Positions 2,479 to 42,301 of a DNA stretch of 64,000 nt are shown here, piece after piece; position 1 is the first letter of the stretch, and each line of letters opens with the position of its first letter. The notes beneath the pieces were generated by a model. It was not told the origin of the DNA. It searched no databases and was given only the letters and a program-made list of their open reading frames with translations. Origin of the DNA: a virus (lineage: Duplodnaviria > Caudoviricetes); IMG/VR virus record IMGVR_UViG_3300028549_001457, positions 160,001 to 224,000 of that record. One strand, 5' to 3'. A program made the position numbers and the translations under genes.

Positions 2479-3601
2479 ACCATCTGCTGTGCTACCTCCC
2501 ATTAATTTTGAAGGGGCTACGTATCTTGAGTATGACGATGCTCAAGCGGTGGACTCCGATTTTATCCAGGAAGTAAGGGATTCCTTTAAGGCCTGTGAGG
2601 ATATTCAGGAAGAGCTTGTTGGGTTGAGCGATCTGAGGTGTGTTTTCGAGGATAATACCTATCACCTTGATATTCTTGGGGATAAGTATCATTTCCCTGA
2701 AAATGGCCTTGCCTTCACTCAGTATTGCGCGGCTCTCGGTATCCCCGGAGCGTTTGCTCGTAAGAACCCCGGTGCTGATAATATCCAGCTTTTCTCCACG
2801 CATACTGCGCTTAAAACCCAGGTTGCTGAAAAAGAGATCCTGCTCAAGTATCATTACAACGCATCTACCCAAAAGAATGAATTGTGTGCAGTTCTCAAGG
2901 GTACTTTTCAGACCATTAAGAACTCCACAATTTTTGAGGGACTCGTGGATGCCCTTGGGGGCCATGTTGTTGTTGATCGCAATATGTGCAATATTGATCC
3001 CTACGGCGCTAATTATCTGCGTCTTTTGTCGCCCAATTTCCTCCCAACGTCTGATGAAGATAAAATCTTCCTCGCATATGATCTCCAGTTTTCTGAGTGC
3101 GCTGATACTGGAGTGGTGTTGGGTTTAGGGCTGTGGCGCAAGATCTGCTCCAATGGGCTTGCTGTCCCATCAATGGATGGCAAGGAAGCCTATAAGCACC
3201 CCTATAGAGGGTTGGACCCCACGGTTCCCGCCTACATCTTCTCGCGGCTGCTGAAGGAAGTTGTCACGAATGACGCCATTGGGAAACGTCTTGCGACTAG
3301 GCGTGATGAACTCATGCTGGAACAAATGGATCTTCAGACCTCTCTGGAGCGTTTGGCCTATAACGGAACCCCCAATGCCTTCATTGCAATGATTGAGGAG
3401 AAGGTTGCTCAAGATGTTACACGGTCCCAGTGGAATCTTCTAAATGACCTAACTCAAGAAGCACAGGCTATTCCTAATCTTCGTAGGCGCAGAGCTATTG
3501 AGAAGTGTATTGGTCAAACTTTTGGGTTTACTCTAGCGTATGACTCCCCCCATAGTCGTAAGAAGAAAAAGGAAGAGGCTGACGCTACACGCGAAGCCTA
3601 A
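2462..3601 (+). CDS. DUF932-like phage protein
   Basis: GLWRKICSNGL motif typical of the family. Confidence 0.45.
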   Translation: MSEVFEPSAVLPPINFEGATYLEYDDAQAVDSDFIQEVRDSFKACEDIQEELVGLSDLRCVFEDNTYHLDILGDKYHFPENGLAFTQYCAALGIPGAFARKNPGADNIQLFSTHTALKTQVAEKEILLKYHYNASTQKNELCAVLKGTFQTIKNSTIFEGLVDALGGHVVVDRNMCNIDPYGANYLRLLSPNFLPTSDEDKIFLAYDLQFSECADTGVVLGLGLWRKICSNGLAVPSMDGKEAYKHPYRGLDPTVPAYIFSRLLKEVVTNDAIGKRLATRRDELMLEQMDLQTSLERLAYNGTPNAFIAMIEEKVAQDVTRSQWNLLNDLTQEAQAIPNLRRRRAIEKCIGQTFGFTLAYDSPHSRKKKKEEADATREA

Positions 3602-3622
3602 GGTTCTTTTTCTAGTTATTTT

Positions 3623-3648
3623 AAGTGGCCCCACATGGGGCCACTTTT
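3623..3648 (+). terminator. intrinsic terminator
   Basis: aagtggcccc-acat-ggggccactt hairpin followed by T run. Confidence 0.7.
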
Positions 3649-3694
3649 ATATTCTGTATCTCCTATATTGTGACTCTACTTTCGTGGATGGATA

Positions 3695-5125
3695 ATGACT
3701 GATTCTTGGATGACTAAATACAGGCCCACCACATTCTTGGATGTTGTAGGGCAGGATGATACCCTCACCATTCTTAAGGGTATGCTTCGAGGCAAATTTA
3801 TTATCCCATCAATAATCATCGAAGGGTCCTATGGGGTTGGTAAAACTAGTATTGCACGGATTCTAGCTAAAGCACTCCTATGTGAGTCCCCCGATTCTGA
3901 GGGTATGCCCTGTAATATATGTGAATCCTGTAAGGCCTTCACATCGGGGAACAATATTAATTACATTGAACGTGATGCGGCGTCTTCAGGGAAGGTCGCA
4001 GACATTCGAGAACTAGTTAAACTTTGTGCCTACCCAGCTATGGGTTCATCTCGAAGGGTGGTAGTTCTGGATGAGGCCCATAGAGTTACCCCGGAAGGGT
4101 GGAATGCTCTGCTAAAAACCCTTGAAGAATCCGTGCAATATACTGTTTTTATTTTTTGCACTACCGAAGCTGACAAGATTCTAGACTCCATTAAATCAAG
4201 ATCGCGTGATTTTAGGCTAACCCCAATTTCCACCACCCTCATGATCGAACGGATGAAATATGTTCTGAAAACAGAGGGGGTAGGGGATTTTGAAGAAGAC
4301 GCTCTCAGGGCTATAGCAGAAGCGTCTCATGGTCACCTTAGGGACGCATTAAATATCCTAGAACAGGCTCATCTAGCTGAAGGTATCACGCTAGACTGTG
4401 TGACTAGGCTCACGTGTAGGGTAGATACCTCGCGTATTAAAGCTGCCTTGGAAGCCACGTTGCGAGACCCCTCTTTTATGTTAGTAGCCCTCGCAGAATG
4501 GCTACAGTTCATGACACCCTCCGATATTGCTTTATCTATACATGATGTTATTATTAAGCATCAGTTGGCATTACTAAAAGTAGAGCCACACAATATGCTT
4601 GTAGGGTGGGGGGATGTGATTCCCATTATGACTTGGTTATCTATTGCACCCACCCCAACAACCCCCTCTCAACTTCAAAATTTTATGATTCAGTTGGTTT
4701 CCAGGCTTAAAGTATCTCCGCAAAAACAGGACATCACCCAGACTGCTTCTGATAGCGATGTGGTAAGAAAACCCAAGCCAGAAGCTAAGTTAAGGCCTTC
4801 CCCTAGAAGTGTCGTATTAGCTCCCAGGCCAACCCCTCTCCCGCGCCCCGCTGAGACTCCTAGTGTTATCACAAACCCGCCTACACCCATTCCCACACCC
4901 ATTCCCACACCCATTCCTACACCCATTCCTACTCCCATTCCTACTCCCATTCCTACTCCCATTCCTACTCCCATTCCTACTCCCATTCCTACTCCCATTC
5001 CTACTCCCATTCCTACTCCCATTCCTACTCCCATTCCTACTGTAGGGGCACCCTCGGTTGCATCTTTTTTAGCTCAATTTTCTGTACAATCCCCCATTCC
5101 GCAAGTTGGCGATGCTCAGGAGTAA
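3695..5125 (+). CDS. dnaX: DNA polymerase III subunit gamma/tau (clamp loader)
   Basis: [13 protein letters not shown], Walker [11 protein letters not shown]4 zinc site, [21 protein letters not shown]. Confidence 0.9.
4886..5041 (+). repeat. 13 x 12 bp tandem repeat encoding (PIPT)13 in DnaX
   Basis: 2x cccattcccaca, 1x cccattcctaca, 10x cccattcctact. Confidence 0.95.
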
Positions 5126-17795: not shown

Positions 17796-17887
17796 GCGCG
17801 TGTGCCCAAATCTTGGCAAAGGGGCAGGACTGAGATTCCTGTGTGCCGAAAGGCCGACTGTGGGTTCGATCCCCATCACGCGCACCA
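17796..17887 (+). tRNA. tRNA-Leu(GAG)
   Basis: cagga-ct gag at-tcctg arm; long V arm; ACCA end. Confidence 0.9.
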
Positions 17888-28736: not shown

Positions 28737-28811
28737 GCGCCAGTAGCTCAGCGGAAGAGCGAGGTCCTCCTAAGGCCTAGGTCGGGGATTCAAATTCCTC
28801 CTGGCGTACCA
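28737..28811 (+). tRNA. tRNA-Arg(CCT)
   Basis: aggtc-ct cct aa-ggcct arm; ACCA end. Confidence 0.9.
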
Positions 28812-29095
28812 ATACTTATATGTATCTTTTAGGGAGAGGTTTTTTTATGGCCCAGCATCTGTGGGAATATTGTAATCATTGTAATGCCCGTGTGGTCATC
28901 TGCGGGACTTGTGGTAATAATACCTGTAATGGTGGTCATGGAACGCTTTTGGATGGGTCTGACTGCCCCGATTGTAAATCCGCGTATTGGCTCTATGAGA
29001 CTGATTTTAGATTGCATAATTAGGTATGCTCATGGAATTGTTTACGTGAACCGTCAATTTTGAGCACCCAAACCCAATCTAAAAGGATTAATGTC

Positions 29096-29756
29096 ATGGA
29101 TATTATTGTAGAAATACGTGCCGCAGAAGGCGGCGATGATGCTGTTTTATTGGTTCGAGACCAATTAAAGGCCTATCTTCGGAGGGCTGAGCGGAGGGGA
29201 CTTTGAGACCGAGATTCTAGAGGAAACTTCGGGTTTTGTGTCCTTCTTGGTAAAAGAAGATCCATCCCAAGAATTCTTTAATGAAGCTGGTGGTCAACGG
29301 TGGCAACATATTAGTCCAACTGACAAAAATAAGCGCGTTCATACTTCAACTGTTACCGTTGCTGTTTTAGCATTACAGCATTCCTCAGTCTACCTCAATC
29401 CCAACGATGTGGAGATTCAAACCACCCGAGGATCAGGCCCTGGCGGTCAAAACAGGAATAAAGTAGAATCCTGTGTCTTGGCTATACATAGGCCCACAGG
29501 ACTCTCTGTAAGAATTGACGGGCGCTCCCAACTTCATAATAAGAAGGTGGCGTTAGAAGTCCTTGCAACTCGTTTAGAGGCCGCTCATGCTGCTTCCCAG
29601 CATCAAGCCTTAAGTAAGCACAGACGAGATCAAGTCGGTTCGGGCCAGCGTGGGGATAAGGTCAAGACTTATCGAGTGCGTGATAACACTGTAACGGATC
29701 ACCGGACGGGGCAGAAATGGAACCTGGATAAGTGGTTAAATGGCTTCTGGGACTAA
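29096..29756 (+). CDS. class I peptide chain release factor, 219 aa via programmed +1 frameshift at CTT TGA (29201-29206)
   Basis: EIRAAEGGDDA upstream of the stop; +1 frame gives HISPTDKNKRVHTS, GSGPGGQNRNKVES, VKTY...VTDHR; SD-like GGAGGGGA directly before CTT TGA. Confidence 0.85.
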
Positions 29757-30248: not shown

Positions 30249-30645
30249 GGTTCTTTTTTTAGTGGGTCTTCCTGGAAGCGGGAAGACCCACTATATTGAG
30301 TCCCATTTTGAGGAGCTACGCGATTACACCGTCTTGGACGATACTTCCCATAGCTTCAACAAAGAATCCTTGGTGGGGACTATTCAAAACCATCCTTTGA
30401 TTGTTATTGCGGACCCTTTTCTTTGTCGGGGTATTTTTCGAGAAGCAGCTAAGAGACTCTTTGCTAATTTTGAACAAACCTGGATCTTTTTTGAGAATTC
30501 CCCTGAAATTTGTTTTGCAAATGTAGCCTATAGAAATGATGGTAGACACGTAAGTGAGTCATTCATCAAGTCATTGTCTAGGGAGTATGAAATTCCTACG
30601 GATGCTTTTGTTGTAGCAGTTGTTTCTGGTGAGGCTTCAGCATGA
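30217..30645 (+). CDS. P-loop kinase (AAA_33/PNK-like)
   Basis: VGLPGSGKT Walker A. Confidence 0.65.
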   Translation: MIFSSSITNSKVLFLVGLPGSGKTHYIESHFEELRDYTVLDDTSHSFNKESLVGTIQNHPLIVIADPFLCRGIFREAAKRLFANFEQTWIFFENSPEICFANVAYRNDGRHVSESFIKSLSREYEIPTDAFVVAVVSGEASA

Positions 30646-31034
30646 ATTTTAGTGACTCAATCCGTGACTGGCCTGAGGATTTTGCCCATGAAAATGGTAT
30701 ATACCTCTGCACTTGCTCTATCTGTAGCCATACTTTCACGGGGCATAAACGTAGGGTTATTTGTAAAGTCTGCCAACAAGATCGCCCCAAGTCTGCTTTG
30801 CCAAGCCCCCTCCCCTGCCCGTTTTGTGGGGTGGTCCCCAAAGTTTTCCCGGTAGACCCCAGGACCGAGGGGGACGCTTGGGGTGCCGTTCGTTGCCTTA
30901 ACCCTGAGTGTGTCGCAAAGCCTATTGTCAGAGATGGTGAGGCTATTGTAGACACTCGTGGCAGTGACGCCTATAAAACCGCTGCAATTCTTAGATGGAA
31001 TACCCGTTGGAGTTCGGCATGGACACTCTCTTAG
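30642..31034 (+). CDS. zinc-finger protein, Lar-like C-terminal domain
   Basis: CSIC..CKVC and PLPCPFCG...AILRWNTR. Confidence 0.55.
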   Translation: MNFSDSIRDWPEDFAHENGIYLCTCSICSHTFTGHKRRVICKVCQQDRPKSALPSPLPCPFCGVVPKVFPVDPRTEGDAWGAVRCLNPECVAKPIVRDGEAIVDTRGSDAYKTAAILRWNTRWSSAWTLS

Positions 31035-31229
31035 AACGCTATATGTGTTTGCGGTGTAGACGCGATAGATTTAGCACTCCCGGCCCACACCGTTGTGGGG
31101 GGATGTTTATTAAACATTTTCGTAAAAGGGTTTGGGGAGACGTTTTCCCCAATGGATTTTTTAAGAGAATCTCTCAGCCCTATTGGGGTGCTTAGATTTC
31201 TTTTTAGGGTAGAAGAGGATATTATACTC

Positions 31230-32375
31230 ATGCTAAAGGTTTCACGATTGTTAAGAGCTACAACCCCGGAGATATCCTCTAAGTTTCCTCCTCAATTAAT
31301 TACCTTACTTCGTAAGCTGAATTCTTTTGGTGAGTTTTATCTCGTTGGGGGCTGCATCCGTGATGCGCTTCTTGGTAGAACGCCTAAAGACTTTGATGTT
31401 ATGGTTGTGGCTCCCTCCCCGCAAGAGCTTGAAAAGATCCTCCCCGTGAAGCAAGTCGGAGCCGCCTTTCCTGTATATCTATATGATACTGAGGACCCAG
31501 AGTTAGGCATTATTGAATTCGCCTATGCCCGTAAAGAGACAAAAACAGGGATTGGGTATAAGGGTTTTGATTTTGAGGTCGTTTCAGATGTTAAAGAGGA
31601 CCTAGCTAGACGCGATCTAACTATAAATGCTCTCGCCTGGAACCCTACTGCAGGACTTGTATCTTTTGATGATAGGGCTATGGATGATGTGCAGACTAAT
31701 ACTCTTAGGCATGTCACGGAAGCTTTTGCGGAAGACCCTCTTCGTGTATTGAGAGCAGCTAGATTTTCAGCACAACTCCCAGGTGATTGGAAAGTGGACC
31801 CCGAGACTATCAAATTAATGAATAGTCTCCAGGGTGAGTTGCCTTCTTTAGCATTGGATAGGATTCGAATTGAGCTAGAAAAATCTCTCAGGGCAGCAAA
31901 ACCAGGGAACTTCTTTCAGGTACTACATCAAGCTGATTGCATGAGTTATTGGTTCCCAGAGTTGGAGTCAAATCTCCCAGCGTTAATTAATTTGGTAAAT
32001 AAGTCTGCAAAATCAGTTAGCTTAATTGAGATGTATTGCCTATTAGCCCAGACAATGCAATCTAATGGTGACGTAAAGACTTTTTGTAAACGGCTTTCTC
32101 TTGCATGGGATCGGGAAATGGCGCTGTGGCGTAATATCCACGCCTGCTCTTTTACCTCCCCTAAAGATTTCTTGATGGTGTATAAAGGTGGGCGTCAAGG
32201 AAGGCTCCCATTTGATAGTATTTACAGACTTTTAGAGATTAATGGGGATACTTCAAGCCAAACCTCCCTTAAGAAAGCGGTGGCTGCTCTTCAAAATCTA
32301 AAGCTCCAAGAGGTCCCACCGTCCGAAATTCCTGCTTTGATGCTTAAAACAGTTTCTTCAGCGTTAGGGATGTGA
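31230..32375 (+). CDS. cca: CCA-adding tRNA nucleotidyltransferase, MLKVS-tagged
   Basis: YLVGGCIRDALLG..PKDFD, FAYARKE, EDLARRDLTINA, EDPLRVLRAARF, ERI-like DRIRIELEK. Confidence 0.9.
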   Translation: MLKVSRLLRATTPEISSKFPPQLITLLRKLNSFGEFYLVGGCIRDALLGRTPKDFDVMVVAPSPQELEKILPVKQVGAAFPVYLYDTEDPELGIIEFAYARKETKTGIGYKGFDFEVVSDVKEDLARRDLTINALAWNPTAGLVSFDDRAMDDVQTNTLRHVTEAFAEDPLRVLRAARFSAQLPGDWKVDPETIKLMNSLQGELPSLALDRIRIELEKSLRAAKPGNFFQVLHQADCMSYWFPELESNLPALINLVNKSAKSVSLIEMYCLLAQTMQSNGDVKTFCKRLSLAWDREMALWRNIHACSFTSPKDFLMVYKGGRQGRLPFDSIYRLLEINGDTSSQTSLKKAVAALQNLKLQEVPPSEIPALMLKTVSSALGM

Positions 32376-40293: not shown

Positions 40294-40669
40294 GGGGGTG
40301 CCATGGTTTTGACAGGTTGTTTATTTGAAGAGTAGTGCAGGTAGGGGTGGGCTGGCCCCTTTAATAAGCCCAAAAGCTATAACTGCCGAAGACACAATGC
40401 TTCTTCAGGCTGCGTAAGCAGCAACCTCTTAGTGAGCGTTTGGTAACTAAGTTGTATGTTCTTCAGAGGGTGGATTCGTCCTACTGATGGGGGATAACAG
40501 ACTGGACTCCGGTGACGCTTTCCTAGCCTGAGTTAAGAGCGTAGAGAGCAAGTCCTTGAATAGGGTTAGCCCAACTCCCTATAGAGGTCACGAAAAATGG
40601 GCTAAACCTGTGAATGAATTACCTTTAGAGGCTTCTTGGACATCGGTTCGATTCCGATCACCTCCACCA
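40294..40669 (+). ncRNA. ssrA: tmRNA, tag peptide (A)AEDTMLLQAA
   Basis: G3:U70 acceptor, TTGAC D-like loop, ATAACT-GCC resume site (40385-40417), T arm and ACCA. Confidence 0.95.
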
Positions 40670-42227: not shown

Positions 42228-42301
42228 GCGGGTGTAACTCAGTGGTAGAGTGCTAGCTTCCAAGCTGGAAGTCGAGGGTTCAAATCCCTTCACCCGCTCC
42301 A
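42228..42301 (+). tRNA. tRNA-Gly body with 6 nt anticodon loop (ttccaa)
   Basis: identical to Gly(GCC) at 18813 outside the anticodon arm; ctagc-ttccaa-gctgg. Confidence 0.7.

Follow-up and report, generated by a model that had tools for sequence, protein, structure and literature searches.

The question raised by this locus is how a class-I release factor can be produced from a gene whose reading frame is closed by UGA after 36 codons, and how its production may be tied to termination in the infected cell. The window, which is the whole stretch of 64,000 nucleotides analysed here, corresponds to positions 160001-224000 of a 278,785-bp IMG/VR phage record with a completeness estimate of 95%. 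The same DNA is contained in microbial-mat metagenomes, and a search of deposited phages by DNA similarity gave no close relative of the window phage. This phage uses code 11: table-11 ORFs span 90% of the genome, and stop usage in the whole genome (TAA 151, TAG 65, TGA 60) indicates that TGA is an ordinary stop, with UAA and UAG accounting for 78%. The features of the release-factor gene and of the translation island around it are listed in Table 1. Other genes of this region include a tRNA-like gene with an unreadable anticodon (42228-42301), a Cys-rich small ORF with several CxxC pairs and no Pfam match directly upstream of the release-factor gene (28820-29023), and a gene for a protein with a Lar-like restriction-alleviation domain (30642-31034).

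Table 1. Features of the release-factor gene and its surroundings (window positions)
Feature	Position	Strand	Description
Initiation site	29083..29098	+	AAGGA 29083-29087, 8 nt, ATG 29096-29098
Frame-0 ORF	29096..29206	+	36 codons (MDIIVEIRAAEGG...RRGL) and TGA; start of release-factor domain 2
+1 cassette	29193..29206	+	GGAGG 29193-29197, 3-nt GGA, CTT 29201-29203, TGA 29204-29206; followed by G
+1-frame part	29205..29756	+	183 codons (ETEILEE...GFWD) and TAA; remaining domain 2, domains 3 and 4
Codon-recognition tripeptide S73-P74-T75	29313..29321	+	aligns with RF1 PxT and RF2 SPF
GGQ catalytic motif G116-G117-Q118	29442..29450	+	invariant columns in family alignment
Translation island	12262-42818		44 tRNA genes, tmRNA and CCA-adding enzyme; release-factor gene inside
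tRNA-Leu(GAG), CUU-reading isoacceptor	17796..17887	+	context
tRNA-Arg(CCT), AGG-reading	28737..28811	+	285 nt upstream of release-factor gene; context
CCA-adding enzyme	31095-32375		adjoins release-factor gene
tmRNA	40294..40669	+	tag AEDTMLLQAA; about 10.5 kb downstream of release-factor gene

Frame 0 ends with CGG AGG GGA CTT TGA (29192-29206), and the +1 frame is open from 29169 to the TAA at 29754-29756. When CTT-T is read as one step, the two parts are joined to a product of 219 amino acids (P0001), and we consider it quite probable that an RF1-type class-I release factor of this length, without domain 1, is made here by a programmed +1 frameshift. The start codon was compared with those of homologues, which begin 2-5 residues ahead of the EIRAAEGG motif. 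The earlier note had recognized a prfB-type cassette, and its geometry (an SD-like core, 3 nt, CUU and an in-frame stop) is indeed that of prfB. The base after the stop is G (UGA G) and not the C of the prfB consensus, so that the weak context is missing in the window, and the position, codon 37, is in an RF1-like gene without domain 1 rather than near codon 26 of an RF2 gene. The same note had pointed out that the ORF track misses the N-terminus; the ORF list shows only the 172-aa ORF from the GTG at 29238 to 29756, and the 47 residues missed consist of the 36 frame-0 codons and 11 codons of the +1 frame. The string GGAGGNNNCTTTGA occurs once in the window, where 0.10 copies are expected, and once in the 278,785-bp genome. 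Such a single occurrence alone is weak evidence, and the strong evidence comes from the relatives.

The homologue set comprises at least 43 distinct genes with 41-73% identity, mostly from large phages, which came from two scans of IMG/VR, a genome scan and three look-ups of contigs. In all 43 genes, the frame-0 stop is located exactly 31 codons past the E of EIRAAEGG and the GGQ lies in the +1 frame, and therefore a +1 shift is required. The conservation of CTT TGA, which had been named as a check, was found in the form of CTT followed by a stop at the same codon in 43 of 43 (TGA 37, TAG 5 and TAA 1), against a share of CTT of 16% among Leu codons elsewhere in these genes. The codons at -4 and -3 are CGG in 32 and AGG in 28 of the 43, compared with shares of 16% and 14% among the Arg codons elsewhere. 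In 26 genes GGAGG is present with the 3-nt spacer, and at least four of its five bases are matched in 32. The SD-like element is weak or absent in the other 11, so that not every member of the set has the stimulator. At the position following the stop (+4), C is found in 25 genes, G in 12, A in 5 and T in 1. When third positions of the window gene were compared with those of its three nearest relatives (L004, L005 and L019), 20-23 of 31 upstream codons differed and 0-1 of six cassette codons did; synonymous sites are frozen in the cassette only, not upstream of it. At the place of the cassette, an SD-like string is missing from the relatives that do without a shift.

The same arrangement is found in deposited sequences. 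A 485-kb uncultured phage (LR745208.1) has GGAGGGGT CTT TGA C at the same codon. Among the best 120 database proteins, about 70 are C-terminal ORFs whose N-terminal extension in the +1 frame reads GG-x-F-D/E, which is the cassette, and many database entries start downstream of the shift site. The cassette string by itself is not diagnostic: among the matches of CGGAGGGGNCTTTGA listed for IMG/VR, 16 of 117 were within release-factor genes. The scan of genome contigs gave mainly canonical Acidimicrobiia prfA genes with domain 1, and the short shifted form was found on four MAG contigs only. These four (L097, L107, L125 and L166) belong to bins assigned to Myxococcales, Hydrogenophilales, Sandaracinaceae and Bacteroidales, and may be prophages or mis-binned phage contigs.

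Two explanations without a frameshift have to be weighed against these data. A pseudogene or an assembly error, that is, a spurious extra T in the TTT run, would be simple, because one T inserted into GGA CTT GAG yields the window sequence; we give it next to no probability. At least 43 divergent genes share the shift and its codon and keep intact ORFs on either side of it. The bases of the cassette are frozen, and an independent assembly is identical, since a contig from an independent microbial-mat study covers 28900-29380 with 0 differences from the window. From the relatives, the independent contig and the frozen bases together, an error or a pseudogene is excluded for practical purposes. 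RNA polymerase slippage on a run of three T is not expected. None of the data sets listed as containing this DNA is an RNA sample. In a wastewater run that carries the label RNA-Seq but is probably DNA, a contig of 219 nt is an exact match to 29176-29393; it was not counted, since less than 31 nt of it lie to the left of the site.

The second explanation assumes two products, or termination followed by re-initiation, with GGAGG serving as the ordinary ribosome-binding site of the downstream ORF. GGAGG is a perfect SD, and in several relatives gene callers have annotated two ORFs for the one gene, with the short upstream ORF as a separate entry. Internal initiation is nevertheless unlikely because the +1 frame has no ATG, GTG or TTG from the SD to the GTG at 29238, 40 nt away, and a start at that GTG would delete part of domain 2. 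Relatives have no conserved +1-frame start near the junction, and homology is continuous across it, so that this explanation is very improbable. We thus return to the frameshifted, joined product.

The RF1-like character of the body, its lack of domain 1 and its SPT tripeptide, all of which the earlier note had derived from the letters, were borne out by profile searches. Sequence alignments with HMMs and PDB entries are the basis of the domain architecture; the +1 ORF, when folded from its single sequence, reached a pLDDT of 39.8, which is unusable. P0001 matches the Pfam PCRF profile at residues 2-88 (profile positions 101-194) and the RF-1 domain (PF00472) at residues 97-203, the latter with 86.5 bits against a cut-off of 35. 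The frame-0 ORF alone matches PCRF positions 101-134 (E 3e-5), and each half matches PCRF separately. In the alignment with residues 106-319 of Thermus thermophilus RF1 (E 2e-40), no gap is placed at the junction (AEEMGFETEVLD versus AERRGLETEILE). The part of PCRF corresponding to domain 1 (positions 1-98) is encoded neither in the gene nor anywhere in the genome. RF1 is the best match among both HMMs and PDB entries: the NCBIfam models of prfA (TIGR00019 and NF001859) give 184-185 bits against cut-offs of 400-423, with coverage only from model position 105 or 113 onward, and the cut-off is missed because domain 1 is absent. The prfB model (TIGR00020) follows with 113 bits, which is also below its cut-off, and the tripeptide is SPT, not the SPF of RF2. 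RF1-type reading elements are retained, namely the Q in RWQ, the T in HTS and the GG-D/E in helix alpha-5. The window has SPT in place of PxT, and the majority of relatives have PPT.

The absence of domain 1, which is also characteristic of PrfH, together with a match of 92 bits to the PrfH model (TIGR03072) and the location in an island shared with a phage tmRNA, could be taken as signs that the factor acts in codon-independent ribosome rescue, like PrfH or ArfB, and not in termination. This is improbable. The PrfH score is below the cut-off of 166.65 and far below the prfA score, and no RtcB is found in the 278,785-bp genome. For ArfB, a GGQ domain followed by a basic tail at the C-terminus, the match is limited to residues 96-127 (31 bits, cut-off 100), and domains 2/4 with the codon-reading residues of RF1, which ArfB lacks entirely, are present in the window gene and throughout the family. 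The window gene is therefore neither PrfH nor ArfB, and the most likely role of the product would be to add stop-codon-dependent peptide release in the infected cell, with UAA and UAG as the expected targets.

A quick maximum-likelihood tree of 90 rows, including eight bacterial RF1s, was constructed for the family. The short phage factors form a clade apart from the bacterial RF1s (SH-aLRT 100), and a single clade of 50 (SH-aLRT 95) holds 39 of the 40 shifted genes, which indicates that the shift is old and has mostly been retained. A few members of this clade are continuous or have an in-frame stop. Homologues with a continuous ORF, which had been named beforehand as evidence against a shift, thus exist as a minority, placed outside the shifted clade or at its edges. 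Viral family members have no room for domain 1, the upstream open frame being shorter than 65 codons in nearly all of them, and many of the genes are situated among tRNA genes. SPT has arisen at least four times in the tree.

A separate clade of 23 genes (SH-aLRT 99) requires no shift and has exactly one in-frame TGA, always at codon 30 after EIRAAEGG (G-TGA-K/T); the loci are L047, L049, L056, L057, L061, L065, L069-L073, L075, L077, L080-L082, L084, L086, L089, L091, L092, L094 and L095, with the release-factor gene at about 2001-2660 in most of them. In the alignment, this codon takes the place of the conserved RF1 Trp and of the cassette CTT. The remaining Trp codons (typically 103 and 216) are TGG in most of the 23 genes. 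TGA is the ordinary stop in 67 of 147 long neighbouring ORFs, the flanks look standard-code, and no UGA-suppressor tRNA was found near these genes. The clade looks like a candidate for a programmed UGA readthrough version of the same gate, and if this is true, it would support the stop itself, and not the shift, as the selected feature.

Several other forms were observed among the relatives. Three loci within the shifted clade, L041, L046 and L038, have an in-frame stop at the cassette position, codon 31 of the release-factor gene, immediately following a Leu or Tyr codon, and require no shift; the sites are GGT CTC TGA CTG, GGG CTA TGA CTG and GGA TAT TAG ATG, respectively, and L046 and L038 are sisters with different stops. 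In a 636-kb phage (L002; LR756504.1, 1492-2163) the short release-factor gene has one in-frame TGA, and in a 482-kb phage (L007; 2986-3651) it has two; both have a PPT loop, and the TGA positions vary between them. Near L007 and two similar loci, long ORFs end mostly with TAA. Both are probably phages in which TGA means Trp, with a release factor of the RF1 type. The pair L004 and L005 (locus about 2700-3960) is identical upstream, and differences start about 90 nt before the start codon: 3 of 108 N-terminal bases differ, and about 20% differ from the cassette stop onward. L004 has a TAG cassette with SPT and L005 a TGA cassette with PPT, a pattern that suggests a recombination breakpoint at the cassette.

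The best model for the shift is the established prfB mechanism, in which slow decoding of the A-site stop and SD:anti-SD pairing drive the P-site tRNA-Leu from CUU to UUU. In the window gene, the ribosome would translate 36 codons until CUU occupies the P site and UGA the A site, and GGAGG, 3 nt upstream of CUU, would pair with the anti-SD of 16S rRNA. If UGA is not promptly read, peptidyl-tRNA-Leu would re-pair from CUU to UUU and the ribosome would go on in the +1 frame and complete the full factor; recognition of UGA by a release factor would set free a 36-aa peptide instead. The output of the factor would therefore be inversely coupled to the efficiency of UGA termination, which should mainly reflect the activity of host RF2, with the factor's own activity added if SPT permits reading of UGA.

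The earlier note had spoken of autoregulation of the RF2 style, and this part did not hold as stated: most members combine PPT with UGA, a codon not read by RF1-type factors, and therefore host RF2 is the likelier sensor. Cross-control by host RF2 is a simpler reading than autoregulation. For a factor reading UAA and UAG only, the benefit of being coupled to RF2 activity is not obvious; a speculative rationale is that, under RF2 limitation, an RF1-type factor would take over UAA termination and spare RF2.

Strict autoregulation of the prfB kind, with SPT broadening recognition to UGA and the phage factor ending its own synthesis at the UGA of the cassette, is on balance unlikely, though it deserves more weight than the alternatives discussed above. 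The S is at the position of the RF2 Ser (SPF) that contacts the second stop base, and the first tripeptide residue is said, in work by Ito and colleagues from 2000, to govern the choice of A or G at base 2. For relatives that combine a TAG cassette with PxT (L177-L179, L302, L305, L325, L328 and L350), self-recognition is the natural reading, and members with CUU-UAG and PxT could be truly autogenous. However, in the homology sample 34 of 40 shifted genes have TGA without S at the first tripeptide position, and the Thr with which RF1 excludes a G at base 2 has been kept. Genes with SPT have a TGA, TAG or TAA cassette with no pattern, and TAG cassettes are found mostly with PPT, the count being nine genes with PPT, PPN or PKT loops against two with SPT. 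With SPT unlinked to the stop of the cassette, the broad-specificity or rescue role that the earlier note had considered found no support as stated. In the first 40 loci all three non-TGA stops were in SPT genes, which seemed to link SPT with such stops. This link was dropped: three PPT genes with CTT TAG were found, and a complete IMG/VR scan for CGGAGGGGNCTTTAG gave seven release-factor genes, of which six had PPT, PPN or PKT. Published atomic mutagenesis (PMC5776981) indicates that the tripeptide alone does not set specificity. In the SPT loop of the window, a Ser as in RF2 occurs together with a Thr as in RF1, and specificity cannot be predicted from it.

When the shifted and the in-frame-TGA clades are taken together, the family may be read as having a stop-codon gate at one codon of domain 2, realized by a +1 shift in one clade (CUU-UGA, less often CUU-UAG) and by decoding of an in-frame UGA at the RF1 Trp position in the sister clade, so that an RF1-type factor would be made only when host termination, mostly by RF2, fails. 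We put this forward tentatively, as a possibility of which we are not yet persuaded.

The closest known system in mechanism is prfB, with which the window gene shares the CUU shift codon, the in-frame A-site stop, the SD-like element with its 3' end 3 nt before CUU, the +1 direction, the avoidance of U at the base following the stop, and the location in a release-factor gene. The window gene is not a member of prfB, because gene family, position and use of TAG differ: the carrier is RF1-type and phage-borne, the site is at codon 37 in domain 2 and not at about codon 26 in domain 1, and TAG is used in about 12% of the phage relatives, compared with 0 of 8,164 prfB motifs in a 2025 survey (PMC12421855). 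Since in most members the product is not expected to read UGA, the loop is probably not autogenous, unlike that of prfB. With bacterial RF1 (prfA, TIGR00019) the window gene shares domains 2-4, GGQ and the residues of the RF1-type third-base pocket. It differs in having no domain 1 (the side of RF3 and the L11 stalk), in its score below the family cut-off and in SPT for PxT; for prfA, that survey found no programmed frameshift (PMC12421855). PrfH (RFH, paired with RtcB2) is likewise a class-I release-factor homologue without domain 1, but the window genome has no RtcB partner and the loop is RF1-like, not of the PrfH type.

Recoding at stops has been described for another viral termination factor. 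According to a review (Atkins et al., 2016; PMC5009743), a giant-virus release-factor gene requires both readthrough and frameshifting; it resembles the present case in that stops must be recoded for a viral termination factor to be expressed, and differs in being an eRF1 homologue of eukaryote type, in an amoeba virus, with other signals. The same review gives as unknown both an RF2 gene with an in-frame UGA and an RF1 gene with an in-frame UAG. In the recoded phages of Borges et al. (bioRxiv 10.1101/2021.08.26.457843), phage RF1 and RF2 genes are found near tRNA genes and have been proposed to reshape termination in the infected cell. Code-change genes, including release factors, are encoded there in the standard code, these RF1 and RF2 genes are reported with no recoding inside them, and the preprint does not use the word 'frameshift'; the window phage has the standard code. 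Every CUU-stop case in RECODE is prfB (PMC10274946), and the full-text literature that was searched gave no description of a frameshifted phage RF1-type gene.

We are therefore rather confident that this locus represents a real and conserved variant of prfB-type +1 frameshifting in a phage RF1-type gene, the shift itself being deduced from the conserved cassette and frames. Frameshifting at CUU-stop has so far been regarded as restricted to prfB, and here it is encountered at another site, in an RF1-type gene of large phages, with UGA as well as UAG. The finding also bears on annotation, given the split calls and the entries beginning past the shift site. The family provides a natural system for asking whether one release factor can be made to depend on the activity of the other through frameshift gating, what role a release factor without domain 1 plays, and how phages with large tRNA sets retune host termination. 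If the gate reading is true, these genes would constitute a cross-regulatory sensor of host termination capacity, of a kind undescribed in cells or phages.
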